Source: Escherichia phage vB_ecoS_OzMSK
Length of the DNA: 45,053 nucleotides
Sequence record: PQ659294.1
Strand: one strand, 5' to 3'
Every line of letters starts with the position of its first letter. Position 1 is the first letter of the stretch. Below the pieces are notes generated by a model. That model did not search any database. It was not told where the DNA came from and saw only the letters and a program-made list of their open reading frames with translations. Shown here piece after piece: positions 3,813 to 39,463 of this stretch. The translations under genes were made by a program, and so were the position numbers.

Positions 3813-3998
3813 ATGAAAATTGTAACATTCATCGTGAAAGATTCAGAAACAGGTTCCGTTCAGAAGTTTAACGCAAAGATGGACTTCACGGAAACCCGAG
3901 TGGTCAAAGGATCACTTAATGGAGTTTCTGTATCCGCGCAGCTTCCGCATGGTTTTGATTACTTATTCGGAAAACAATCAGCAAATGACGATGAGTAG
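3813..3998 (+). CDS. hypothetical protein (61 aa)
   Basis: ATG at 3813 with upstream GGGGGA; this is the 3' part of track ORF 3630..3998, whose 5' part runs through the tRNA. Confidence 0.4.
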   Translation: MKIVTFIVKDSETGSVQKFNAKMDFTETRVVKGSLNGVSVSAQLPHGFDYLFGKQSANDDE

Positions 3999-4182
3999 CT
4001 TGTGGGATGTGAAGTTGTCCATTCGCTTAATGGGCCGCTCGTGCAAGAATTGCACTCAAGATTACATCGCGTCAGTTGCCGCAATCAGCGCTGAGGATGC
4101 GGTAGCGAAAGTAAAGAGTATGTCAGGAGCTGCCCCTGATACTCACAAATTCCTGGTAGCTTACGTTCGTGAGCGAAAGTAA
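3985..4182 (+). CDS. hypothetical protein (~65 aa)
   Basis: ORF followed by a strong intrinsic terminator; start 3985 or 3991 uncertain. Confidence 0.35.
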   Translation: MTMSSLWDVKLSIRLMGRSCKNCTQDYIASVAAISAEDAVAKVKSMSGAAPDTHKFLVAYVRERK

Positions 4183-4226
4183 AAAGCGTTATACCCTCGT
4201 TAAGTTTCGTTTCTCTCGTTGTTTTT

Positions 4227-4250
4227 AGCCCTCGCTTGAGGGCTTTTTTT
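4227..4250 (+). terminator. rho-independent terminator (AGCCCTCGCTTGAGGGCT + T7)
   Basis: GC hairpin followed by a T-run. Confidence 0.7.
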
Positions 4251-4270
4251 CGTCTGTAATATGGTATAAT
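4251..4270 (+). promoter_or_regulatory. sigma70-like promoter with extended -10 (TGGTATAAT) ahead of the packaging/head operon
   Basis: TGGTATAAT at 4262..4270 directly after the terminator; AAGGAGG RBS and ATG 4294 follow. Confidence 0.5.
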
Positions 4271-4293
4271 CTGACCTCAACAAAGGAGGATTT

Positions 4294-4800
4294 ATGAGCA
4301 AAGCAGCATTAAAGATTGGTGAGGGAAACTTCAAGGCGCTCTACAACAAGAAGTATGGCGATATTGCTATGGTCGCAATCAACCGTAAGTACACGCCCGA
4401 GGAGGTATTTGACTTTGCAGTGAGATACTTTTCATGGGCTGAGAATGAGGCAATCAAGGCCATTGAGACGGCTGCATTCCAGGGTGTGGTTAGCGAGAGC
4501 CTGGTTCACAAGCCTCGAGTGTTCACCTTAACTGGCCTGGCGCTATTTATGGGTGTCAATATCAATAGATTCGCTCGCTGGCGTACTGAGGCTGGTTACT
4601 CTGACGTGATGGAATTCATTGATAACGTAATTTATGAGCAGAAGTATCAGCTTGGCGTTGCAGGCATCATCAACTCCACAATCGTTGGTAAAGAGTTAGG
4701 GATTGATAAGCCGCAGGAGATTACCATTAGCAACAACTCCACAGCTAACGACGTTGATAGCATGAAGGAAGCGCTGGAGTCTGTGATTAGTAAGTTATAA
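4294..4800 (+). CDS. terminase small subunit (putative)
   Basis: 168-aa ORF immediately upstream of the large terminase; strong RBS AAGGAGG. Confidence 0.55.
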   Translation: MSKAALKIGEGNFKALYNKKYGDIAMVAINRKYTPEEVFDFAVRYFSWAENEAIKAIETAAFQGVVSESLVHKPRVFTLTGLALFMGVNINRFARWRTEAGYSDVMEFIDNVIYEQKYQLGVAGIINSTIVGKELGIDKPQEITISNNSTANDVDSMKEALESVISKL

Positions 4801-4818
4801 CAATAAGAGGGTATAACA

Positions 4819-6384
4819 ATGTCTTTAGTGTGGGAAGAAATGACCATTCAGGAGAAGATGGCGGTTAAGGCTATATCAGAACACAGCTTCGAGGGTTTCC
4901 TTCGGTGCTGGTTTTCAATAACCCAGGGAGAACGATACATCCCTAACTGGCATCACAAGTACTTGTGCAGAATCATTGACGAGATTATCGCAGGAGAGCG
5001 CAAGGATACCATCATTAACATAGCGCCGGGCAGCGGAAAGACGGAAATCGCTTCAATACACTTCCCGGCATACTCGATGGTTAAGCTGAAGAAGGTGAGG
5101 AATCTTAACATCTCATTTGCCGACTCCCTTGTAAAGCGCAACTCGAAACGCGTACGTGACCTTATCAAGTCTCAAGAATTTCAATCACTCTGGCCTTGCA
5201 AGTTTGGCACATGCAAGGATGATGAGCTTCAGGTTCTTGATGAGAGCGGAAAGGTTAGGTTTGAGTCAATATCAAAGGCGGCTGGAGGCCAGATTACTGG
5301 TGCTCGCGGTGGCTACATAACTGAAAATTACAGTGGTGCGGTGTTGTTAGATGATTTCGATAAGCCCGCAGATATGCTTTCTCCGGTTTATCGAGCTAAT
5401 AACCACGTAATGCTCAAGAACACAATTCGATCACGTCGCGCTAGCTCTGTAAAAGGAAAAGCGACACCAATCATTTCGATACAGCAGCGTCTGCACGTCA
5501 ATGACTCAACCTGGTTCATGATGGAAGGTGGGATGGGCATCGATTTTGACTTGATTAAGATACCAGCGCTAGTTACTGAGGATTACATCGACTCGCTCCC
5601 TGACTGGATTAAAGAGCAGTTTGCGGAAGACGTTTTAAGCAGTGAGTACATTGAGAGAGATGGCGTAAAGTACTATAGCTACTTCCCAAAAAAGGAGTCA
5701 GTAAACGACCTGGTTGCGATGTGGGATAGTGACCCGTACACTTTTCTCAGCCAGTATCAACAAGAACCAGTAGCACTTGGTGGCAATCTGATTAACGTAG
5801 ACTGGTTCCAGCGTCTTAGTGATACATTCAGGCATCCAGCCAAGTACGATTATAGATTTATAACTTGCGATACTGCGATGACCACAAAGAGTTATAGTGA
5901 CTTCTCTGTACTTCAGTTGTGGGGATATAAGGATGCTAAGATTTACCTGATAGACCAGCGCAGGGGTAAATGGGAGGCTCCAGAATTAGAGGCTGAATTA
6001 CTTGACTTCGAGAAGAAATCAAGGGCAACCAGTCAGTCAGATGGCATCCTACGAAAAATCATTATCGAGAAGAAAGCCTCTGGTATCGGCTTGATTCAAT
6101 CTGCAGGCAGGGTAATGCGAACTCCGATAGAGCCATACGTACCGGATAGCGACAAGCTGACTCGCGTGATGAGCGCGTTACCACAGATCAAGGCTGGTAA
6201 CGTCGTCCTTCCAGAGTCTGCGCCATGGCTAAATGGATTGCTTACGGAGGTTGCGGCTTTTACGGCAGATGACTCGCATAAGCACGACGACCAAATTGAC
6301 TGTCTAACAATGGCAGTAAACCTTGTTCTCAATATCGCGGATGATCCTAAGGCACGACTAATGCGCATAGCGGGAATTAAATAG
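4819..6384 (+). CDS. terminase large subunit
   Basis: 521 aa; Walker A-like NIAPGSGKT near the N-terminus; C-terminal nuclease-like acidic residues; position before portal. Confidence 0.85.
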   Translation: MSLVWEEMTIQEKMAVKAISEHSFEGFLRCWFSITQGERYIPNWHHKYLCRIIDEIIAGERKDTIINIAPGSGKTEIASIHFPAYSMVKLKKVRNLNISFADSLVKRNSKRVRDLIKSQEFQSLWPCKFGTCKDDELQVLDESGKVRFESISKAAGGQITGARGGYITENYSGAVLLDDFDKPADMLSPVYRANNHVMLKNTIRSRRASSVKGKATPIISIQQRLHVNDSTWFMMEGGMGIDFDLIKIPALVTEDYIDSLPDWIKEQFAEDVLSSEYIERDGVKYYSYFPKKESVNDLVAMWDSDPYTFLSQYQQEPVALGGNLINVDWFQRLSDTFRHPAKYDYRFITCDTAMTTKSYSDFSVLQLWGYKDAKIYLIDQRRGKWEAPELEAELLDFEKKSRATSQSDGILRKIIIEKKASGIGLIQSAGRVMRTPIEPYVPDSDKLTRVMSALPQIKAGNVVLPESAPWLNGLLTEVAAFTADDSHKHDDQIDCLTMAVNLVLNIADDPKARLMRIAGIK

Positions 6385-6432
6385 CCGTGATAAACTAAGC
6401 CCCTATATGGGGATTTTCTATTGGAGAAAAAC

Positions 6433-7701
6433 ATGGTTAAGACAGACAGCTACGCCAATATCTTTCTAGGCGGCAGTGATGGTAGTGAGATTTACGGGAG
6501 TTTGCAGAGCCAATCCCCTACAATTCTGGCTTCGCTTTATGCGGACAATGCGCTGGTGCGTCGAATCATCGACACAATCCCGGAAACAGCACTAGCGGCA
6601 GGATTCCACATTGATGGAATTGATGATGAGCCTGCATTCTGGTCGCGCTGGGACTATCTAGAACTAACAAAGCACATCAATGAAGCCTGGTCGTGGGCTA
6701 GATTGTTCGGTGGGGCAGCAATTGTTGCTATCGTTAAGGACAATAGAGCTCTAACAAGCCCGGTCAGAGAAGGGGCGGAACTTGAAACCGTTCGCGTTTA
6801 CGACCGTACTCAAGTAAAAGTACAAACTCGCGAAGAGAATCCCCGCAACGCACGTTTTGGCAAGCCACTAACCTATCGCGTCACCACTAATGAGAGCGAT
6901 ATGTTCTATGATGTGCACTACAGCCGAATTCACATCATTGACGGAGAGCGAATCCCTAACGTAATGCGTCGGCAGAATGATGGCTGGGGCCGCAGCGTTC
7001 TTTCCAGTGACATTCTTGACTCAATCAAGGATTACACCAACTGCGAAAGACTCGCCACCCAACTACTGAGACGAAAGCAGCAAGCAGTGTGGAAAGCCAA
7101 AGGTCTGGCTGAGTTGTGTGATGATAGCGAGGGATTTGGTGCCGCAAGGTTGCGCCTAGCACAGGTTGATAACAATAGCGGCGTTGGTCAGGCGATTGGC
7201 ATTGACGCGGAATCTGAAGAGTATAGCATCCTAAACTCTGATATTGGCGGGATTGATGCGTTCCTGGATAAGAAGTTTGACAGAATCGTTGCACTGAGCG
7301 GCATTCATGAGATTATCCTGAAGAATAAGAACGTTGGCGGCGTATCATCAAGTCAGAACACCGCATTGGAGACATTCCATAAACTAGTCGATCGCAAGCG
7401 TAACGCTGAACTACTGCCGATTCTCGGGTTCCTGATTCCGTTCATTTCAGACGAGCAAGAATGGTCAGTGGAGTTTAATCCCCTAGCGCAGGAATCAAGT
7501 AAGGATAAGGCCGAGATTCTTGAGAAGAACGTAAACAGCATTGCGACACTAATTGCAGCTGGCGCTATGGACATTGACGAAGCTAGGGATACATTGCGCA
7601 CAATCGCTCCAGAGGTTAAGATTAGTGACGGTTCAGTAGAAACAGAGGTGACAATTAGTGAAGCCAGTAATGACCCGCTGGAAGTACCCACAGACAATTG
7701 A
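6433..7701 (+). CDS. portal protein
   Basis: ~420 aa ORF directly after terminase; ATG 6433 with GGAG RBS (track start 6421 is TTG). Confidence 0.8.
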   Translation: MVKTDSYANIFLGGSDGSEIYGSLQSQSPTILASLYADNALVRRIIDTIPETALAAGFHIDGIDDEPAFWSRWDYLELTKHINEAWSWARLFGGAAIVAIVKDNRALTSPVREGAELETVRVYDRTQVKVQTREENPRNARFGKPLTYRVTTNESDMFYDVHYSRIHIIDGERIPNVMRRQNDGWGRSVLSSDILDSIKDYTNCERLATQLLRRKQQAVWKAKGLAELCDDSEGFGAARLRLAQVDNNSGVGQAIGIDAESEEYSILNSDIGGIDAFLDKKFDRIVALSGIHEIILKNKNVGGVSSSQNTALETFHKLVDRKRNAELLPILGFLIPFISDEQEWSVEFNPLAQESSKDKAEILEKNVNSIATLIAAGAMDIDEARDTLRTIAPEVKISDGSVETEVTISEASNDPLEVPTDN

Positions 7702-25036: not shown

Positions 25037-25082
25037 ATAGTATCGCATCCTTGCGATCAGTGTTTAGCAATTCGTGCTATTT
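25037..25082 (-). promoter_or_regulatory. class-A promoter-like cassette inside the 3' end of the methylase gene, ahead of the lipoprotein gene
   Basis: Minus-strand AAATAGCACGAATTGCTAAA then TACTAT at the conserved spacing; the motif encodes the methylase C-terminus INSTNC and its stop. Confidence 0.5.
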
Positions 25083-31363: not shown

Positions 31364-31386
31364 TAAAAAAACCTCCCAAAGGAGGT
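31364..31386 (-). terminator. rho-independent terminator for the primase transcript
   Basis: Minus strand reads AACCTCCTTTGGGAGGTTTTTTT. Confidence 0.65.
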
Positions 31387-32312
31387 TAGTCTATTAATTC
31401 GCTTGCTTTGTATATTCGCTTTCTTATGCCAGACTTGAAAAAATTATCATCATTTGGCATTACAACATCAAGATTGCGATCATCAGCAACGGCAAGTAAA
31501 TCAAAAGAGTGGCGAGTACAAGCGACGCGTAACTTGTAGTTTCTAAGCGCATAAGCAACCATTTCCATGTTGTAGCTGGAGTGGCAAACAAGCACGCAGC
31601 GGTTGCCACTAGCAAGATGAACGCGAACACCATCAATCCAATTATCGACCAGATAAGCGTACTCACTATCCTTAAAGGCACCAATAACAGCCACAGATTG
31701 GCGAGTATAATCTTTTGCAGCATAACTAACATCTCCCTCTTCATTTATAAAAATTACATTGCACATCTCATCTGACACGCCGTCACTATAAGCCATAAAG
31801 CACGGCACTGCGTGTATTAGTTCACCAGATTTAGCCCTACCAACATCAAAGCCGAACTCGCTATAGATACCCTCGTATATACTGAGTGGAGTTGATTCTA
31901 CTCTTTCCGTCCTTCCCATTATCTCTAAGCATCTTTCGTGGTCAATCTGAGCGCCCATTTTGTATGGTGATGTTCTTGAAGCTCTTTTGTTTGCTTTTGA
32001 TATAACCTCTACTGGAACTAGATTCAGCCAATCACCAAGCGTATCTATTGTTTCACTATAACTCATTCCGGAACACTTCATTACCCAACCAACACCAGAA
32101 TCATTTCCGCACTGGTTGCATATTGCTGCGCCATTTCCCTTTTCCTGACCTAACTCATCAGTGAAGCGAAACCTATCCCTTCCAAAGCAGTAAGGGCACG
32201 GACCATGTTTCTTGCTGAGATTCTCCTTTGTCCATCCAAGGTGCGATGAGTAGAAATCACTCCACATTCCCTTCATTTTTGCTATCACTTCGTTCTTATC
32301 ATGGTGACTCAT
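31386..32312 (-). CDS. DNA primase (zinc-binding)
   Basis: Cys-rich N-terminal segment CPYC...CNQC (GPCPYCFGRDRF...AICNQCGN); ATG 32312 with GGAGG RBS. Confidence 0.65.
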   Translation of the reverse strand: MSHHDKNEVIAKMKGMWSDFYSSHLGWTKENLSKKHGPCPYCFGRDRFRFTDELGQEKGNGAAICNQCGNDSGVGWVMKCSGMSYSETIDTLGDWLNLVPVEVISKANKRASRTSPYKMGAQIDHERCLEIMGRTERVESTPLSIYEGIYSEFGFDVGRAKSGELIHAVPCFMAYSDGVSDEMCNVIFINEEGDVSYAAKDYTRQSVAVIGAFKDSEYAYLVDNWIDGVRVHLASGNRCVLVCHSSYNMEMVAYALRNYKLRVACTRHSFDLLAVADDRNLDVVMPNDDNFFKSGIRKRIYKASELID

Positions 32313-32337
32313 AGTTACCTCCATAAACAATAAATGC

Positions 32338-32383
32338 ACTATACACAATGTATAGCGCCACTGTTTATCAATTCGTGCTATTT
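32338..32383 (-). promoter_or_regulatory. class-A promoter-like cassette upstream of primase
   Basis: Minus-strand AAATAGCACGAATTGATAAA then TATAGT; motif overlaps the stop of the upstream gene. Confidence 0.5.
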
Positions 32384-32860
32384 CCCTTGCTCTTTAGCTT
32401 TTCGCGCTGCCTCGTTAGCGGCCTTAATCTTGCGCCATGATCGACACTCTGTCTTGGTGGCTAATTCAGCCTCAGTAACAACACGCAGCATGTGACGCTT
32501 TTTGCAACGAAGAGTTAGCGGCTTCCCGTTACCGTCGAATTGCAAATCTGGTCGGCAGAATGTGGCGCGAAAACCTTCTCCATTTCGCTTGTAGTAGTTG
32601 TGCGACAGCTGGGCGCCACGTGCCGATATCATGCCGCGCTTAAACCATTGTTCTACAGCCTGTGGTGTTACCTTTAACTGCTTTGCGATATTCGCCTTTG
32701 TGCCGAAGAAATCAAGAACTATCTCCAGGCGTGCCCGTAACCCTGCTCTTACTTCATCCTTTAAAACGTAGTAACCTGAAGGTCGTTTACGTTGCTTTTT
32801 GTCTTCAGTGCGGATAGTTCCGTTGTTGCCGTTAATGGTTCTCTTGTCGACTGTATTCAT
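32378..32860 (-). CDS. putative DNA-binding protein (160 aa, basic, HTH-like segment)
   Basis: Highly basic; segment IAKQLKVTPQAVEQWFKRG resembles a helix-turn-helix. Confidence 0.4.
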   Translation of the reverse strand: MNTVDKRTINGNNGTIRTEDKKQRKRPSGYYVLKDEVRAGLRARLEIVLDFFGTKANIAKQLKVTPQAVEQWFKRGMISARGAQLSHNYYKRNGEGFRATFCRPDLQFDGNGKPLTLRCKKRHMLRVVTEAELATKTECRSWRKIKAANEAARKAKEQGK

Positions 32861-32961: not shown

Positions 32962-34956
32962 ATGTTGCCTATCGAGAAGCTGGTTGCAAACTTCGATAAA
33001 GAAAGAATCAAGCAGATTCAGAAAGATTACCAGTTTGGCGAGATAACCCCTTACGAATTCCAGTGCGTTACATTTGACGTAATTGGGAAGGCTATTGGCA
33101 AGTACGAAGCGCCATTTATCGCAGACCTTTCCGTATCGGCTGGTAAGACAATCATTCTTGCTATGATTGGAAAGCGAATGGAGCAGCTTGGTCTTCCTTA
33201 TATGGTTCTCTCTCGCCAGTCAGAGATAATCAGCCAGAACTCAGAAGAGCTTCGTAATTTCGGGATCCGTAACAGCGTATATTGCGCTGGCCTTAACGTT
33301 AAATCAGTTTACTACCCAACCATAGTTGCTAGCGAAGGAACTGCGGCTAATGGCTTATTTAAGGGGCTTGGTGACTATGTTCCTGCCGTTATAGCTATAG
33401 ATGAATGTCACATGCTTGATACCATAGATATTGTGGAAGCCGAAGAGAATGAAGAAACATTTGAGCAAATGAGCACAAAGAAGGGCGAGATGGTTTTTAA
33501 GGATGGCGTTAATACTGGATTGCTTGGTACTGGTCGTGCGCAGTACACGCTAATAATCACTGAGATGAAGCGTCGCTGCCGTGAAAAATACGGGCGGGAG
33601 CTTCGTATATTCGGCCTTACTGGTAGCCCTTATCGAAACAATGACCATATCGTCGTCAGCAATCCAAACATCCGTGGGTTCTGGCGAAAAGCTGTGATTC
33701 ATGTTCCAACAAATTACCTTGTTGATTTGGGATTCGTGGTTCCTACTGTTTATGGCGAGGTTGGCGATTTAGGTTATGACCTTAGCGAGTTTGTTCCAGA
33801 CGGTAGTGATGGCGTGAAAGACTTTAGCAGAAAAGAAATGGATGCAATGGTCGCAAAGATTCACGACAACCAAACCATGACACAAAAGATAATGCAGTTT
33901 GTCGTCAAAATACTGGAGACTCGCAACGCCGCATTGGTCACCTGCGCCGGAAAACTCCATTGCAGCGAAGCGGCTTCCGCACTGCCTGACGGATACCCTT
34001 ACGCTATTATCACCGATTCTACCGGAGAGAGGAAGCGCAGAGAGATTCTTGCAGATTGCCAGACTGGAAAGTACAAGATTATCTTTCAGATTGGATGTCT
34101 AACCACGGGTGTAAACCAACCGCTGTGGGATACTAGCGTCATACTACGCAAGATTGGCAGTCTAACCTTAATGATTCAGCTTCTTGGTCGTGGCATGCGA
34201 AAACTAAAAAAGGCGCACATAGATGCTGGGTTCAAGAAGGAGGACCACTTGGTATTAGACTTTGCCGGAGCGCTTGATGACATGGCAGAGCTTTACTTTG
34301 ACCCGATAATTGAAGAGATTCAGGCTGAAAAGTTTAAAACATCAAGGAGGAGTGGTGATGAGGTTCGCCAGTGTCCGCAGTGTGGATATGATAACTCGCC
34401 ATTTGCTCGACGCTGTAGCAATAAGATTAATGGCGTTAGATGCGATCACTTTTTCCAGTTCACAACATGTGAGGATATTACCGACCAACAAACAAAGGCG
34501 GTAATCAAGAAAGGTTGTGGAACTAAAAATGACATAGCAGCAAAAGTTTGTCGTGAATGCGGAGAAATGCTTAAAGACCCAAACGCTAACCTGACTGGAA
34601 AGATGTATCGTCGCGGAGACTATTTGCGTGTTTATGACTTCCAGGTTGGATTAAGCAAAAATAAAACTGGTATAGTAGTTAAGTATAATATCATGGCGCA
34701 CAACGGAGAGAGGTTTAACGCGTGGGAGTTCTTTAACCCAGAATCAGACCATAGGGTTTGTAGTGTGCTTTGGAAAAACTTTTGCCTTGCTCACATTGAA
34801 AATCGCGCTGAAGCAGCACGGATTGGTAAAATTCGTAACGCAAAAATGATTATGATGAATGTAGATAAATTCCGTGCTCCAGTGCAAGTTACACACAGGA
34901 AGAACGGAAAGGGGAAGGATGTGATCGCATACAAGAATTTTGGAGAATTGAAATGA
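32962..34956 (+). CDS. SF2 helicase (DEAD/DEAH-like) with C-terminal Cys-rich zinc-ribbon region
   Basis: Walker A SVSAGKT, Walker B-like IDECHML, paired CxxC motifs (CPQCG, CRECG). Confidence 0.75.
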   Translation: MLPIEKLVANFDKERIKQIQKDYQFGEITPYEFQCVTFDVIGKAIGKYEAPFIADLSVSAGKTIILAMIGKRMEQLGLPYMVLSRQSEIISQNSEELRNFGIRNSVYCAGLNVKSVYYPTIVASEGTAANGLFKGLGDYVPAVIAIDECHMLDTIDIVEAEENEETFEQMSTKKGEMVFKDGVNTGLLGTGRAQYTLIITEMKRRCREKYGRELRIFGLTGSPYRNNDHIVVSNPNIRGFWRKAVIHVPTNYLVDLGFVVPTVYGEVGDLGYDLSEFVPDGSDGVKDFSRKEMDAMVAKIHDNQTMTQKIMQFVVKILETRNAALVTCAGKLHCSEAASALPDGYPYAIITDSTGERKRREILADCQTGKYKIIFQIGCLTTGVNQPLWDTSVILRKIGSLTLMIQLLGRGMRKLKKAHIDAGFKKEDHLVLDFAGALDDMAELYFDPIIEEIQAEKFKTSRRSGDEVRQCPQCGYDNSPFARRCSNKINGVRCDHFFQFTTCEDITDQQTKAVIKKGCGTKNDIAAKVCRECGEMLKDPNANLTGKMYRRGDYLRVYDFQVGLSKNKTGIVVKYNIMAHNGERFNAWEFFNPESDHRVCSVLWKNFCLAHIENRAEAARIGKIRNAKMIMMNVDKFRAPVQVTHRKNGKGKDVIAYKNFGELK

Positions 34957-35372
34957 ATATTACAGACAAAGTTGATTACATTGAGTTTTACCCGGGCCCG
35001 GTTAAGTCATGTCCTAAAGAGGATGACGAACAAATCTTTTGTTCTGATTGGGTTAAGTATAACTACCCGGATATGGTATTTTTCCACTGCGTGAATGAGG
35101 GTAAGAAAACCATTGGTCAAGCAAGAAAGGACCAGGCTAAAGGATTGCTTAAAGGGGTTTCGGACTGCTTATTCCTTATACCTGAATCACTGCGAGGCAA
35201 ATACCCATTTGGCGCTATAGAGCTAAAGAGAGCAGGTAAAACGCAAGCTAGCCCAGTTAGCGATGAGCAGAAGTCATTCCTAAAAAGCGTAAGAGAATCA
35301 GGTGGCTTCTCCGCAGTAGCCTATGGCAGAGGTGGCTTTCTTGCAGCATTCGCAGAGATGATTCGAAAATAG
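34953..35372 (+). CDS. VRR-NUC domain nuclease (PD-(D/E)XK fold)
   Basis: 139 aa; motif DCLFLIPE...GAIELKRAGK matches the D..E.K signature; ATGA overlap with helicase. Confidence 0.55.
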   Translation: MNITDKVDYIEFYPGPVKSCPKEDDEQIFCSDWVKYNYPDMVFFHCVNEGKKTIGQARKDQAKGLLKGVSDCLFLIPESLRGKYPFGAIELKRAGKTQASPVSDEQKSFLKSVRESGGFSAVAYGRGGFLAAFAEMIRK

Positions 35373-35412
35373 CACGAATTGCTAAAGACGAATCGGTGAG
35401 GTGGTGTATTAT
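35367..35412 (+). promoter_or_regulatory. class-A promoter-like cassette (first of a tandem pair)
   Basis: AAATAGCACGAATTGCTAAA then TATTAT; downstream ~165 nt has no plausible ORF. Confidence 0.5.
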
Positions 35413-35576
35413 CAACTCATCGAAACGAAACACTCACAAAAAAGGTGAGAAGTTGCAAACGTAGGCCGGAGCAACGAAAGACGTTTCAAAATATGATGTG
35501 ACAAACCCATGAGAAAGGAAGTTGCAAACGTAGGCCGGAGCAACGAAAATCACATCATAATAAATTATAACTTAGT
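35413..35576 (+). ncRNA. candidate small non-coding RNA or iteron region with two copies of a 29-bp element
   Basis: AGTTGCAAACGTAGGCCGGAGCAACGAAA at 35451..35479 and 35520..35548; each is an inverted repeat GTTGC..GCAAC around GGCCGG; no ORF longer than 8 codons. Confidence 0.3.
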
Positions 35577-35622
35577 AAATAGCACGAATTGCTAAAGAGG
35601 AATCGGTGAGGTGGTGTATTAT
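35577..35622 (+). promoter_or_regulatory. class-A promoter-like cassette (second of the tandem pair)
   Basis: Near-identical to 35367..35412 including GAATCGGTGAGGTGGTGTATTATCA. Confidence 0.5.
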
Positions 35623-35658
35623 CACTTCATCGAAACGAGACGCAGAGAGAGAAATAAA

Positions 35659-35853
35659 ATGTCTACTATCTTTACTGGTAAAATCTACGAATCACGCAAA
35701 ACTGGTTACGAGTATGAATTAGTAATCACCGCTGATGGTTATGTTCTTGACGATGGTGAAGGTTATTCTTTCGAAGTCAGCCCAACCTACAAAGATGATT
35801 TAGAAACTGTTAAAAACGAATTTGGCGAAAAATTTGATGAGATATCTGAATAA
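35659..35853 (+). CDS. hypothetical protein (64 aa)
   Basis: ATG 35659 after conserved leader; the track start 35611 lies inside the promoter element. Confidence 0.45.
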   Translation: MSTIFTGKIYESRKTGYEYELVITADGYVLDDGEGYSFEVSPTYKDDLETVKNEFGEKFDEISE

Positions 35854-36071
35854 TGCAAATCTTAACCTTTGACAAACAATGGGAGCTATTTCAGGCAATG
35901 GCGGTTCAGGAGCTACACAATGCTGGTTATAAAGGTGACTCATGGTTTTTAGCAGGATGCCTTGATTACAGCTTTGAAGAAGATTACTTGCGAACGGACA
36001 TCGAAACATGGCGCGAACGCATGGTTGCAGACATTGCAGAAATGAAGAAAGATATCCCGGAGGATTTTTAA
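35853..36071 (+). CDS. hypothetical protein (72 aa)
   Basis: TAATG stop-start overlap; acidic. Confidence 0.45.
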   Translation: MQILTFDKQWELFQAMAVQELHNAGYKGDSWFLAGCLDYSFEEDYLRTDIETWRERMVADIAEMKKDIPEDF

Positions 36072-36073
36072 CA

Positions 36074-36199
36074 ATGAAAATCGTAGATAAAGAGATTTTC
36101 CAGATTGCTCAAATTTATGCGAAGCAAGCAGTTAGAGATAATGACAATTATTGCTGGATGCTAGCAAAAGAGTATATAAAAATGGCTTATGGCTTATGA
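36074..36199 (+). CDS. hypothetical small protein (41 aa)
   Basis: ATG 36074 with GGAGGA RBS. Confidence 0.3.
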   Translation: MKIVDKEIFQIAQIYAKQAVRDNDNYCWMLAKEYIKMAYGL

Positions 36200-36444
36200 T
36201 AGTTGAAACCGGACGAGACGCAGTATGGGCGCACTGTGGAGAGGCGGGGTTGCAGGATGACATTAAGCAGATATCCCGCTTCTTTGACATAAAAGATATC
36301 AGCGTTGTGTTTAATGGTAAATTCTCTTACATGGATGAGCGACCAAGAAAATACGTAAGAGTTAAGCCAGGTGTGAGAATTGATGTTAATGAGTTCCTTA
36401 AATCAAAGGGACTCAAGTTTAAGATAACGAATCCTAAGGATTGA
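36196..36444 (+). CDS. hypothetical protein (82 aa)
   Basis: ATGA overlap with the upstream ORF. Confidence 0.4.
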   Translation: MIVETGRDAVWAHCGEAGLQDDIKQISRFFDIKDISVVFNGKFSYMDERPRKYVRVKPGVRIDVNEFLKSKGLKFKITNPKD

Positions 36445-36446
36445 TT

Positions 36447-36593
36447 ATGAAGCCACAAGAATATTCAGCATTGGTTAACGGGTTGCTTGATATTTCTATA
36501 AAATTCAAGGACACGCAGCAGTTAAGAGAGCAGCTATCGCGAGAACTATCAAGGCATGGTATTAGGCCGAGACATAAGATGAAAAAGGATTAA
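36447..36593 (+). CDS. possible small protein (48 aa)
   Basis: ORF below the track cutoff, tightly packed between neighbours. Confidence 0.25.
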   Translation: MKPQEYSALVNGLLDISIKFKDTQQLREQLSRELSRHGIRPRHKMKKD

Positions 36594-36595
36594 AC

Positions 36596-36847
36596 ATGTT
36601 GGGTTTAGATTTTCAGCCAGATCATTATGATTTAGTTCATGGCAGTAGCGGTGCTAAGTTTAGGGCGATACCTATTGCTGATTGGTTCCCACCTGATTAT
36701 GTGGATGTTAATGCTAAGACGAAGGATGGTAAGTGGGTACATATTTACTACTCGCCAGCTTGCGGTAATCTATGCATGACAGACCTGGACCAGAAATTAG
36801 CAATTAGTGCGGATTTAATTGATTATTGGTTGAAAGAGGTTGTATGA
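36596..36847 (+). CDS. hypothetical protein (83 aa)
   Basis: ORF with AAGGA RBS. Confidence 0.45.
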   Translation: MLGLDFQPDHYDLVHGSSGAKFRAIPIADWFPPDYVDVNAKTKDGKWVHIYYSPACGNLCMTDLDQKLAISADLIDYWLKEVV

Positions 36848-36928
36848 AGTACGCCGCCCTAGTAGCATTAGTACCACTGTTTAGCTTTACTATCTTATAT
36901 TTTATCGTGATGAACTAAGGACTTAAAA

Positions 36929-38059
36929 ATGGCAGTAGCAAAGATTACCAACGAGCAGCTTATCGAAGAGTTGAAAAATGGCATGACTAACAAGGCGATT
37001 GCAGAGAAGTATGGCATGAACATTCGCAACGTCGAGCTTCGTCGCAGCAAGTTGGCTAAGAGTGGAGTTGGGCATGGTAATGAGGGTATCAATAAGCTAG
37101 TACCGGATGGATATTTAGTCAAGGGCACTTCAACCATGATTGATGCGGAAGGGAATGAGAAGCTGCGCTGGGTTAAGACGAGCGTTGATAATGAGCGCCT
37201 TGAGGTTTTAATGGAGCAAGCTCGAGAAGCGTTTTGCTCTGAGTTGCCAAAGGCAGATTCGGTCAACCACTCAGGTAATGAGGTCAATTCTGAATTAATG
37301 ACTCTTTACCCGATTTTCGATATCCATATCGGCATGATGGCTCATCGACATGAGTCTGGTGAAAATTATGACACGAACACAGCAGAGAAATTGATGGGGT
37401 CATATTTTGACCATGCAATTTCTGTATCACCAGCCTCGGAGAAAGCCGTGATTTTAGTTGGCGGCGACTTCCTTCACTCTGATGGACTGGAGGCTGTAAC
37501 CCCAGCAAGCGGACACTGCCTTGATCAAGATAGTCGATATGCCAAGTTAGTTTATGTAGCAATTCGATCAATTCGCGGTGCGGTAGAGAAGATGCTTAAG
37601 AAACACAAGGAGGTCGAGATTCAAATCATAGAGGGCAATCATGATCAAAGTGGTATGATTTGGCTTCGCGCTGCAATGGCTGCATTTTATGAAAGAGAGA
37701 GTCGAGTGTTTGTTGATACCAGTCCGGCAATCATGCACAAGACGCGATTTGGCTCAACATTACTTGGTTACACGCACGGTCACACGATGAAGAAAGCCGA
37801 GGGTCGACTAGCAGCAATGGCGACCGACTACCGCAAAGACTTTGGTGAATGTGAGTTTGTTTACTGCCACTCCGGCCATTTCCATCATGCAACTGTTACA
37901 GAGTGCACTCTTGGGATTGATGAAGTCCACCCTGCACTTGCTAGCAAGGATGCATATGCGGCACGGGGAGGGTGGAGATCATATCGACAAGCGGCTGCAA
38001 TTATTTACCACAAGAATTTTGGCGAGGTTGGTCGACACATTTATCGCCCAGGTATGTAA
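36929..38059 (+). CDS. metallophosphoesterase (calcineurin/Mre11-SbcD-like motifs) with N-terminal HTH-like domain
   Basis: Motifs FDIHIG (D-x-H), GGDFLHSDG (GD), EGNHDQ (GNHD), YTHGHT (GH); N-terminal MTNKAIAEKYGMNIRNVELRR resembles a sigma70-region-4/LuxR-type HTH. Confidence 0.55.
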   Translation: MAVAKITNEQLIEELKNGMTNKAIAEKYGMNIRNVELRRSKLAKSGVGHGNEGINKLVPDGYLVKGTSTMIDAEGNEKLRWVKTSVDNERLEVLMEQAREAFCSELPKADSVNHSGNEVNSELMTLYPIFDIHIGMMAHRHESGENYDTNTAEKLMGSYFDHAISVSPASEKAVILVGGDFLHSDGLEAVTPASGHCLDQDSRYAKLVYVAIRSIRGAVEKMLKKHKEVEIQIIEGNHDQSGMIWLRAAMAAFYERESRVFVDTSPAIMHKTRFGSTLLGYTHGHTMKKAEGRLAAMATDYRKDFGECEFVYCHSGHFHHATVTECTLGIDEVHPALASKDAYAARGGWRSYRQAAAIIYHKNFGEVGRHIYRPGM

Positions 38060-38133
38060 ATAGTACTTTTTGTTAATAAAGCCTCAAAGGATTGAGGCAA
38101 AATGAATAAACGATAAAGAGATGAGGAATTGTA

Positions 38134-38607
38134 ATGATTTACGTATTTGATATCGATGGAACTATAGCTAATAATGAGCATAGAAGTAACCTCTTGCCAT
38201 TCAGCGACCTTCACTTGACTTCAAGTTGGAAGGATTACAATAAAGCCTGTTCTGGAGACTCACCAATAATTCCAATGATAAACATGATGAATACGTTATC
38301 CGACTCATCGCCAGTTTACATCATGACCTCAAGAAGTGATGAAGTTGAATGGAGGACTCTTGAGTGGCTTAAGGATAATGAGGTTGAGTATGATTCGATA
38401 TACATGAGAAGTCGATATGACAACCGAAAAGATTACAAAATAAAAGAGGAATGGCTTAATGAAATCAGTGGTGGCGATAAAAGCAATGTGATTATTTTTG
38501 AAGATAACCCACAAGTAATTAAGCACCTAAGAAGTTGCGGATACACCGTTATGGCTGTATGTGAATATGAAGACCTACCTAAAGACTGCGAATCTCACGG
38601 AGAATGA
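38134..38607 (+). CDS. HAD-family phosphatase (putative nucleotidase)
   Basis: N-terminal HAD motif I VFDIDGTIA; 157 aa; adjacent to the dNMP kinase gene. Confidence 0.5.
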   Translation: MIYVFDIDGTIANNEHRSNLLPFSDLHLTSSWKDYNKACSGDSPIIPMINMMNTLSDSSPVYIMTSRSDEVEWRTLEWLKDNEVEYDSIYMRSRYDNRKDYKIKEEWLNEISGGDKSNVIIFEDNPQVIKHLRSCGYTVMAVCEYEDLPKDCESHGE

Positions 38608-39161
38608 AAATGACTAAATTATTTATCCTTAATGGCCCAGCTGGAGTTGGCAAGGACACTATAGCGGATATGATGGTTGAGACTGGTGTCGCAAAAGAAA
38701 AGGTATCATTCAAGTCACCAATATTTAGAGTTGCAAAAGGAATGCTATCAAGCGATGAATTTGATGAATTCATCAAGAATTACGACAATAGAGACTATAA
38801 GGAATCACCTCATAGATTTCTTGTCGGTATGACAGTTCGTGAATTTATGATTTGGATTAGCGAGTCTGTAATGAAGCCAGCCTTTGGTGATGATGTTTTC
38901 GGTAAAAGGCTAGCGCAGTCACTTGGTGATGGCTGCTACATTTGCGCTGACGGTGGATTTGCTAGCGAGATTAAGCCACTGATCGACGCTGGTGTTGAGG
39001 TCACGTTAATCAGATTGCATAGGGCAGGGTACACATTTGATGGCGATAGTCGCTCATACATTCACGGGGTGTGCGCAAGAGAAATTGATGTTCGTGTTGT
39101 TGATTGTGATATTAATGGAACATCAGCATTGGTAAGGCACGTAATAAATAGCACAAATTGA
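38604..39161 (+). CDS. deoxynucleoside monophosphate kinase (P-loop kinase, putative)
   Basis: N-terminal P-loop ILNGPAGVGKDT; size and motif typical of phage dNMP kinases; C-terminus INSTN is encoded by a class-A motif copy. Confidence 0.55.
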   Translation: MKMTKLFILNGPAGVGKDTIADMMVETGVAKEKVSFKSPIFRVAKGMLSSDEFDEFIKNYDNRDYKESPHRFLVGMTVREFMIWISESVMKPAFGDDVFGKRLAQSLGDGCYICADGGFASEIKPLIDAGVEVTLIRLHRAGYTFDGDSRSYIHGVCAREIDVRVVDCDINGTSALVRHVINSTN

Positions 39162-39166
39162 TAAAG
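39147..39166 (+). promoter_or_regulatory. class-A motif copy (AAATAGCACAAATTGATAAA) overlapping the kinase stop
   Basis: Motif variant followed by the conserved leader ..ACATCGAAACGAG.. Confidence 0.4.
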
Positions 39167-39232
39167 ATAATAATAAAAACTTAGTTATCATTAACACATC
39201 GAAACGAGATTAACTAAACGAGGAAACACAAA

Positions 39233-39409
39233 ATGACTAAAATGATTTATTGCACCAAAAACAACTCCAAGACTCTGCCATTTACAGTTAACCAGCCGTA
39301 CAACGCAGAGTACCAGGGCGATGGATATTACAAGATTTATGGAGACGATATGACGCACATCTTAGCGCCGATTGATGGTTCGTTGGTTGAATTTATTATC
39401 GCTGACTAG
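39233..39409 (+). CDS. hypothetical small protein (58 aa)
   Basis: ATG with GAGG RBS after a class-A cassette, followed by a strong terminator. Confidence 0.4.
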   Translation: MTKMIYCTKNNSKTLPFTVNQPYNAEYQGDGYYKIYGDDMTHILAPIDGSLVEFIIAD

Positions 39410-39435
39410 CGCAGCAAAAACATAATGTTACGAAC

Positions 39436-39463
39436 GGGGAGCCTTTTGGCTCCCTTTTTTTAT
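39436..39463 (+). terminator. rho-independent terminator (GGGGAGCCTTTTGGCTCCC + T7)
   Basis: GC hairpin plus T-run. Confidence 0.7.

Follow-up and report, generated by a model that had tools for sequence, protein, structure and literature searches.

A covarying two-domain RNA fold between predicted promoter cassettes of the T1-like Escherichia phage Msk

A tandem three-way-junction RNA in a gene-free region

The stretch of DNA analysed here, called the window (45,053 bp; Escherichia phage vB_ecoS_OzMSK, PQ659294.1), is a complete genome, permuted, that matches Escherichia phage Msk (MW057918.1; Drexlerviridae) at 100% and is referred to as Msk below. Its relatives by sequence match are T1-like siphoviruses of the Drexlerviridae. 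Between the VRR-NUC nuclease gene and the next open reading frame (ORF), positions 35418-35562 are the template of a structured plus-strand RNA of about 145 nt that comprises two tandem three-way-junction domains, u1 and u2, of about 70 nt each. We regard it as highly probable, from the sequence comparisons that follow, that this locus encodes a functional RNA. The RNA appears to represent an undescribed family; the promoter cassettes on either side of it are already known as unexplained repeats. Its parts are as follows.

35418-35490, plus strand: RNA domain u1, a three-way junction (minimum free energy fold; covariance model R1, 40.3 bits, E = 8.6e-9, full length)
35422-35427 with 35482-35487: helix P1 of u1, GAAACG / CGUUUC
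35433-35437 with 35445-35449: helix P0 of u1, CUCAC / GUGAG
35452-35456 with 35471-35475: helix P2 of u1, GUUGC / GCAAC, closing the loop AAACGUAGGCCGGA at 35457-35470
35491-35562, plus strand: RNA domain u2, a three-way junction (fold and alignment; R1, 86.9 bits)
35492-35501 with 35550-35559: helix P1 of u2, UAUGAUGUGA / UCACAUCAUA
35502-35506: junction strand CAAAC of u2, followed by a minimal P0, CC 35507-35508 / GG 35517-35518
35521-35525 with 35540-35544: helix P2 of u2, GUUGC / GCAAC, with its loop at 35526-35539 and GAAAA at 35545-35549
35451-35479, plus strand: first copy of a 29-mer, the P2 hairpin of u1 with its flanks
35520-35548, plus strand: second copy of the 29-mer, the P2 hairpin of u2 with its flanks
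35563-35578, plus strand: A/U-rich unstructured linker from the RNA to the second promoter cassette, with no intrinsic terminator

The minimum free energy fold of 35418-35580 on the plus strand consists of two matching three-way junctions (-34.1 kcal/mol, z = -4.05), and the homologous RNA of the jumbo phage K64-1 folds independently into the same two-domain shape, likewise with z = -4.05. The architecture of u1 recurs in the first units of both K64-1 and phage TH27. An alignment of nine units made with MAFFT alone yielded 16 base pairs in RNAalifold, nine of them with compensatory double changes. Covariance model R1, built from that alignment, finds exactly two units in Msk, where the next match is no better than E = 1.7, and 20 units in 13 sources altogether. 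When these 20 units are aligned to the model, 97.4% of cells pair, versus 29-46% with partners slid by one to three columns; double changes occur at 12 of the 16 pairs, and none of 500 shuffles matches the observed covariation score.

Both P1 and P2 of u2 covary across homologues. The consensus of a unit is 5'-P1-(C)AAAC-P0-AA-[G NNNN]-AARCGUAGRMCGKA-[NNNN C]-G(A/C)AAA-P1'-3', in which P0 is variable. Eight different P2 stems were seen, all of them paired: GUUGC/GCAAC, GCGGU/ACCGC, GCGGC/GCCGC, GCGGC/GUCGC, GCGGC/GCCGU, GGGGC/GCCUC, GUGAU/AUCAC and GCGUU/AACGC. Across all eight the 14-nt loop is near-invariant, AARCGUAGRMCGKA. In the second unit of K64-1 and the first unit of the gut contig L140, G..U replaces A..G at loop positions 3 and 13, a joint change consistent with a short inner helix (R3·K13, C4-G12, G5-C11). 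The strands of the junction, (C)AAAC, AA and G(A/C)AAA, are conserved and A-rich. Stem cells hold ten G·U pairs against a single C·A, and the pairing therefore acts in the plus-strand transcript rather than in its complement.

The original prediction, made from the letters of this DNA, had proposed either a small structured RNA or iteron-type binding sites, and had named structure prediction with covariance analysis across related phages as one check; both a fold and covariation were found. The first proposal stands in so far as the 29-mers form hairpins within a two-domain plus-strand RNA that is conserved and covaries; as a discrete small RNA it would have to be processed, since no terminator follows it.

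The repeat on which that prediction was built is real. There are two exact copies of the 29-mer AGTTGCAAACGTAGGCCGGAGCAACGAAA (35451-35479 and 35520-35548; spacing 69 bp), whereas shuffled sequences lead one to expect none. Exact identity of the copies reaches 31 nt (GAAGTTGC...GAAA), and similarity runs on to 45 nt at 87%. As a palindrome the 29-mer was described partly correctly: the arms GTTGC...GCAAC do enclose a 14-nt loop that includes GGCCGG, but GGCCGG itself is not conserved, its place being taken in relatives by GACCGG, GGACGG, GAACGG or GAACGU. The two P2 hairpins within one genome are identical over 31 nt in Msk (35451-35481, 35518-35548) and in TH27 (L001 1583-1613, 1650-1680), and differ from each other in SP-126, Shfl1, ECO104, L140 and K64-1. 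This suggests that the identity in Msk and TH27 reflects gene conversion between units and not a requirement for identical hairpins.

The element as DNA or as a coding sequence

Read as DNA, the same features would be iterons, an origin, or a protein-binding palindrome beside replication genes, and this view has something to build on: direct repeats 69 bp apart, each with an inverted repeat, in a locus that adjoins the genes for helicase and VRR-NUC, lies 3 kb from the primase gene and is flanked by tandem promoters. Iterons were taken to be several direct repeats, usually at least 3, conserved as double-stranded DNA sites. Msk has two copies, Webervirus phages and phage TS33 have one, and the repeat finder TRF detects no array. 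The stems change in sequence while their pairing stays, the opposite of what a sequence-specific DNA site would show, the wobble pairs are biased 10 to 1 toward one strand, and the GGCCGG palindrome is lost. The element moves about among genomes and is not in T1, Sd1 or most relatives. Its proximity to helicase and primase is specific to Msk. GC content across the locus (0.37-0.45) is that of the flanks, with no AT-rich tract, and cumulative GC skew rises monotonically with no inflection there. Copy number, covariation, lost palindrome, wobble, position and composition together reject the iteron or origin reading and that of a double-stranded DNA site, which we consider very improbable.

The neighbouring genes are as the original prediction described them, and domain matches agree.

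31386-32348, minus strand: zinc-ribbon primase, left of the RNA locus
32378-32860, minus strand: Cro-like helix-turn-helix (HTH) protein, 160 aa, left of the RNA locus
32962-34956: helicase, left of the RNA locus
34953-35372, plus strand: VRR-NUC nuclease gene (Pfam PF08774, E = 4.5e-8), upstream context outside the element
35396-35464, plus strand: 22-codon ORF from the ORF listing, GTG start at 35396
35509-35595, plus strand: 28-codon ORF from the ORF listing, ATG start at 35509
35659-35853, plus strand: first ORF of the downstream operon, 64 aa, no Pfam match; its homologue follows the single cassette in Sd1

The earlier statement that the region has no ORF longer than 8 codons is mistaken: the plus strand carries the ORFs of 22 and 28 codons listed above, and the minus strand ORFs of 39 and 43 codons. 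The locus is still to be regarded as non-coding because the ORFs are not conserved and the two 29-mer copies would be read in different frames. TH27, the nearest homologue, keeps none of these ORFs and has no ATG at the corresponding place. That one of them is a small protein-coding gene, with the repeats incidental to it, would agree with the presence of ORFs over the homologous region in several GenBank records; yet neither start codon in Msk is preceded by a Shine-Dalgarno (SD) sequence, the annotated ORFs differ in strand and frame from phage to phage, and substitutions compensate pairing instead of being synonymous. We find this explanation extremely improbable.

GenBank ORFs that run across the motif are Shfl1p06 (minus strand, L127 1413-1643), QZE50433.1 of VAC2 (L004 1448-1606), WPJ69992.1 of ULIM2 (L130 1378-1587), gp429 of K64-1 (L129 1458-1613) and Muenster_010 (minus strand, L155 1398-1574). 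These "hypothetical protein" or "membrane protein" entries are probably mis-annotations of a non-coding RNA locus, and recognition of the RNA would correct several such "hypothetical protein" annotations.

Distribution of the RNA and its insertion in Msk

Homologues of the RNA occur within the Drexlerviridae in TH27 (Nouzillyvirus; 90% coverage of the central 150 nt), in Salmonella phage FSL SP-126 (Tlsvirus), in the Webervirus phages F20, Solomon and VAC2, in the Tunavirus phages Shfl1 and ULIM2, and in ECO104 4-5-2. Outside the family they were found in Hafnia phage TS33 (Guernseyvirinae) and in the jumbo Alcyoneusvirus phages K64-1, RCIP0023 and Muenster. Metagenomes add a T1-like gut contig (L140) and a K64-like one (L141), as well as a doubtful groundwater contig (L144). 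Refined sequence patterns run against IMG/VR recovered only SP-126, F20 and Shfl1, and a search with the bare 14-mer loop gave mostly chance matches. A single unit is present in the Webervirus phages and TS33, against two in Msk.

The element is sporadic even among close relatives. With filters off, the covariance model search finds no unit in T1, and the unit is missing from T1 and some 180 relatives. The 306-nt locus matches 251 phage records, and coverage reaches 80% or more in Msk alone. In most relatives (Sd1, IME542, DTL and the vB_EcoS series) a single cassette stands between the VRR-NUC gene and the next ORF; in Sd1 that cassette directly follows the VRR-NUC homologue. Aligned with Sd1, Msk shows a 210-bp insertion that comprises the non-coding stretch and a second copy of the cassette. 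This cassette-bounded block marks the Msk RNA as an accessory insertion into a leader region that is simple in Sd1. Compared with T1, Shfl1 and ULIM2 have about 140 extra nt, cleanly inserted into the ST75 5' leader. The position of the RNA in the genome varies among T1-like phages, and only in Msk does it follow VRR-NUC.

No match to the RNA was found by BLAST in 5,426 complete E. coli genomes, and no host-derived or prophage copy is therefore indicated. In 185,579 bacterial and archaeal species genomes, one for each species, there were seven pattern matches, with stems of 0-2 bp, as chance expects. The absence from E. coli and the stemless, chance-level pattern matches make this a rare, accessory, phage-only element as far as seen.

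Three further observations concern the movement of the motif. First, the P2 hairpin and its flanks (GAAGCGGUAAACGUAGRCCGGAACCGCGAAAA) are identical at 33 of 35 positions between TS33 (L128 1501-1535) and the first unit of SP-126 (L003 1524-1558), units that are unrelated outside this hairpin and its flanks; this suggests recent transfer or very strong selection on the hairpin. Second, the Muenster motif lies within the terminal repeat predicted by PhageTerm (L155 1-3165; Muenster 3937-7101), and that of Shfl1 in a region matching the 2.8-kb terminal redundancy of T1 (L145 1-2800); its position in Msk is different. The motif may therefore be present twice per virion DNA in Muenster and Shfl1, in the terminal repeat at each end. 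Third, the E. coli IncX1 plasmid NZ_CP032994.1 (23036-23127; L153 1432-1523) and about 136 related enterobacterial plasmids contain GGCAAACCCAA, some 55 nt, and then AAAGGGCAGGAAGCGGTAAACGT. These segments of 23 nt and 11 nt correspond to the 5' half of a Webervirus unit, with their order preserved, and adjoin dqlB, a DinQ-like type I toxin gene; they lack the loop and the 3' arm, and the covariance model scores none of them. The similarity could be due to chance or be a relic of recombination.

Promoter cassettes on either side of the RNA

The two cassettes that flank the RNA are described below.

35362-35431, plus strand: promoter cassette 1, with the direct repeat (DR) box ATAGCACGAATTGCTAAA at 35369-35386 and a -10-like TATTAT at 35407-35412; inferred transcription start near 35419, and the generic leader start CATCGAAACGAAAC
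35572-35641, plus strand: promoter cassette 2, with its DR box at 35579-35596 and a -10-like hexamer at 35617-35622

The prediction of tandem promoter cassettes held as to the repeats themselves, which are two 70-nt copies, 91% identical and 210 bp apart, but these are not canonical sigma-70 promoters: TTGCTA and the -10-like TATTAT are separated by 22 nt, and a sigma-70 consensus scan omits both cassettes. By alignment, cassette 2 is the counterpart of the single cassette of Sd1-like relatives. A 21-nt direct repeat, aaATAGCACnnnTTGnTAAAA, has been described from the T1-like phages TLS, T1 and Rtp, its function being called unknown (PMC11447400). Both Msk cassettes match it with 0 mismatches, oriented with transcription; they are copies of that repeat, joined to a -10-like element and a short leader. 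The known repeat is the vehicle, whereas the RNA between its Msk copies is unmentioned in the same paper (PMC11447400) and is not in T1.

The DR box has 18 matches in the Msk genome versus 0.46 expected. The box ATAGCACnnnTTGnTAAA is present about 16-18 times, with sites at 1853, 2899, 27462, 31322, 32873, 35369, 35579, 38060 and 39148 on the plus strand, and at 25080, 25835, 32381, 40958, 43041, 44154 and 44994 on the minus strand. Each Msk box is followed 19-23 nt on by a -10-like hexamer and by the conserved start CATCGAAAC. Every other DR cassette of Msk then has a leader of about 25-30 nt, a ribosome binding site (RBS) and an ATG; the cassette at 35369 alone has a non-coding "leader" of about 145 nt, with the RNA in place of an ORF, and its -10-like hexamer lies 7-10 nt upstream of u1 in this predicted promoter arrangement. 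Since the -10 element of the Msk DR cassettes lies 21-23 nt from TTGnTA, too far for the sigma-70 consensus scan to list them, promoter activity is here a prediction. The long spacing suggests a promoter class of activator or UP type, and the Cro-like HTH protein (32378-32860, minus strand) is a candidate regulator of the cassettes.

In several DR cassettes a GC-rich, terminator-like hairpin, such as AAAAGCCCCTAGAGGGCTTTT or GCCTCAaaggaTTGAGGC, makes up the spacer that separates the box from the -10 element. Examples are at 40944-40922 (minus strand), 38081-38098 and 44154 (minus strand) in the window and at 1523-1539 of TH27 (L001). Termination of transcription arriving from upstream and re-initiation therefore appear fused in one cassette. 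The spacer hairpin is missing from both cassettes that flank the RNA.

Downstream genes and a possible role as a leader

Every unit found is directly downstream of a predicted promoter and sense to the genes. The promoters are DR cassettes in the Drexlerviridae and are of canonical sigma-70 type in K64-1 (TTGACA-16-TATAAT) and TS33 (TTGCAA-17-TATAGT). What follows the motif varies. The next gene is T1p05-like in TH27 and F20, ST75-like in Shfl1 and gp50 in SP-126, and it encodes an acidic 160-aa protein in TS33, while in Msk and K64-1 another promoter comes next, with no adjacent ORF. In T1 both the T1p05 and the ST75 gene are present but the motif is missing; Msk, conversely, carries the motif but no T1p05 homologue. 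A conserved downstream partner gene was rejected as an explanation on these grounds, T1p05-like genes being found only after the motifs of TH27 and F20 and the gene of T1 having no motif.

A gene for a polynucleotide kinase/phosphatase lies downstream in the same direction in Msk (38134-38607) and SP-126 (L003 2543-3091), and in T1 (L145 4948-5478) in the region that is the counterpart of the Shfl1 site. Its distance from the motif is 0.9-3.4 kb, and it is not in the TH27 and F20 contexts. The co-occurrence is probably synteny of the early region.

The placement of the motif is that of a 5' untranslated region in all cases, which invites the view that it is a cis-acting leader, either a riboswitch or a protein-responsive attenuator. 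Each junction would then act as an aptamer, and binding of its metabolite, nucleotide signal or protein would alter elongation, Rho access, decay by RNase E or translation, the tandem form giving a sharper response. Conservation is indeed aptamer-like, with invariant unpaired nucleotides in loop and junction and freely covarying stems, and single and tandem arrangements are both seen, as among known tandem aptamers. An ORF with an RBS begins within 10-45 nt in TH27, F20, SP-126, Shfl1 and L140. Possible downstream hairpins exist in two members only: a terminator-like hairpin plus CUUUU stands right after the TS33 motif, and in K64-1 the 3' arm of P1 can pair alternatively with a downstream CAAGG (CCUUG/CAAGG). 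Against these points, the association with genes is inconsistent, Msk and K64-1 offer only a new promoter downstream, and the members share no anti-SD sequence, terminator platform or other common expression platform, the SD being unpaired in the folded state. No Rfam riboswitch is matched even at E <= 10. A cis-acting leader is in our judgment unlikely, but it is a serious rival.

A second possibility is that the folds are 5'-terminal stabilisers or processing signals, which would shield a polycistronic mRNA against RppH, RNase E or exonucleases, or would show where it is to be processed. They are stable, about 1-5 nt separate P1 from the inferred start in Msk, K64-1 and TS33, and an A/U-rich single strand follows u2. 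F20 and Shfl1, however, have 9-11 unpaired nt before P1, and protection alone has no need of an invariant 14-nt loop and a conserved junction across three phage groups. Because the conserved loop would be superfluous, this explanation is the less likely, and we rate it improbable.

Comparison with known RNAs

Rfam 15 (4,227 models) gave three chance-level matches to the Msk RNA at E <= 10, the best with 18 bits versus a gathering score of 43, and 0 matches to five other members at E <= 1. ARAGORN finds no tRNA or tmRNA. Matches to the E. coli rRNA operon are at chance level, and rRNA mimicry was rejected. CsrA-type GGA sites were rejected as well, Msk u1, TS33 and the loop of K64-1 u2 having no GGA. 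The loop sequence was not found in the literature searched. Bulk catalogues of candidate phage RNAs exist; the text of one such paper names no Drexlerviridae and no tandem three-way-junction motif (PMC10690425).

Similar in manner of occurrence are putL and putR of phage HK022, folded RNAs of about 70 nt that lie just after early promoters, are independent of the downstream gene and occur as two copies per genome (PMC9378689). The Msk RNA resembles them in size, promoter-proximal place, proposed gene independence and copy number. A put-like mechanism would be processive antitermination, in which the nascent RNA binds the elongating host RNA polymerase and enables it to resist pausing and to read through the terminators of the downstream operon. 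Promoter-proximal units of about 70 nt that act regardless of the next gene would suit a whole operon; T1-like genomes are split by many intrinsic terminators (T1 annotation; position 39436 on the Msk plus strand); and the invariance of the loop would be accounted for if the partner were the conserved RNA polymerase of Enterobacterales. The structures are nonetheless different, since put has two stem-loops, a V shape and a minor-groove triplex with no closing helix (PMC9378689), whereas the Msk domain is a three-way junction closed by P1 with a 14-nt loop. There is no sequence or covariance model similarity either: R1 finds nothing in the PL/PR region of HK022, scoring at most 8.7 bits (chance) in 27.5-31 kb, and homology to put was rejected. 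The motif is moreover dispensable within a genus, T1 being without it, and no terminator occurs in the next 3.9 kb of Msk. Antitermination of this kind seems to us distinctly unlikely.

Adjacent homologous domains in a 5' leader also make up tandem riboswitch aptamers, for example the glycine riboswitch and the two-domain NAD+-I motif. The Msk RNA is like them in its one or two homologous domains, invariant junction and loop nucleotides and covarying stems, and unlike them in having no Rfam match, no expression platform and no consistent class of downstream gene. In T4-type phages, mobile promoter cassettes (PeSL) flank small accessory modules with repeated promoters and appear to shuffle these modules by recombination. 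The Msk insertion is likewise bounded by two copies of a promoter cassette, although its cargo is an RNA fold instead of small ORFs and the cassette sequence is unrelated.

Phages also make RNA decoys, among them the pseudo-ToxI repeats directed against ToxIN and the RNA anti-CRISPRs that mimic repeats, both of which copy a bacterial RNA. The likeness to Msk lies in an accessory, tandem, non-coding RNA of lytic phages made from its own promoter, which in Msk is predicted. The Msk motif differs in that the genome searches above found no bacterial counterpart and in the free covariation of its stems, which is unlike a sequence mimic; mimicry of CRISPR repeats or of ToxI was rejected for these two reasons. 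Type III antitoxin repeats are about 34-45 nt long, and the 69-nt period of Msk does not fit them.

A proposed host-factor-binding function

The comparisons show that the RNA exists, on which strand, with what architecture and conservation, and that it is accessory; the mechanism is what we infer from these patterns. Unrelated or absent downstream genes, sporadic occurrence within genera and insertion by way of cassettes suggest that the RNA acts without regard to the neighbouring ORF. An invariant loop and junction in T1-like, Jersey-like and jumbo phages points to one common partner, and what these phages share is Enterobacterales hosts. We therefore favour, with a rough probability of 0.45, a gene-independent RNA that would bind a host factor, a proposal drawn from comparison of sequences. 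The RNA would be synthesised early, forming the 5' end of a promoter-proximal transcript, in one or two copies. The binding surface that its folded domains offer would consist of the invariant P2 loop together with the A-rich junction, and would serve a single partner, the same conserved macromolecule across the Enterobacterales hosts of these phages. Binding may take place in trans, the RNA serving as a decoy or sponge in host take-over or counter-defence, a version that we consider doubtful; alternatively the RNA may work while still attached to the transcribing polymerase, a put-like action that is a clearly weaker candidate. Put more broadly, the motif may be a new class of ligand-binding phage RNA, a riboswitch-like sensor of a host metabolite or immune second messenger or else a decoy that would neutralise a conserved Enterobacterales factor, carried as a gene-free "RNA moron"; we offer this only tentatively.

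Several points weigh against a gene-independent host-factor binder. The plus strand of Msk has no terminator-like site from 35563 to 39436, u2 being followed by AUAAAUUAUAAC; the RNA as drawn therefore opens a long transcript as its 5' leader, unless processing takes place within the A/U-rich linker. An ORF begins within 10-85 nt downstream in five of the seven contexts, and cis regulation is possible there. Neither rRNA mimicry nor a bacterial counterpart RNA was found in the searches above. The promoter and the start are deduced from a repeat with a function called unknown (PMC11447400). The 20-unit alignment was fitted to the covariance model and hence leans towards the modelled structure, and independent lineages are few, with about 8-10 distinct units. 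Conservation of the loop could therefore partly reflect recent horizontal transfer.

Significance

T1-like phages are common laboratory and therapeutic coliphages, yet how they are regulated has hardly been studied. What their intergenic repeats do is listed as an open question (PMC11447400). The present results show that T1-like promoter cassettes can carry a non-coding RNA fold supported by covariation. The same fold is common to a Guernseyvirinae phage and to 346-kb jumbo phages, and it has no bacterial match and no Rfam entry. If the broader reading is true, the target of the decoy would be, for example, a defence or RNA-decay protein, and the "RNA moron" would spread between unrelated virulent phages by means of cassettes. 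Being small (70-145 nt) and dispensable, and occurring naturally in only one member of near-isogenic pairs (Msk versus Sd1-like phages, Shfl1 versus T1), the module lends itself to direct testing. Identification of the partner of the RNA could uncover a new means of taking over the host, of counter-defence or of controlling transcription.

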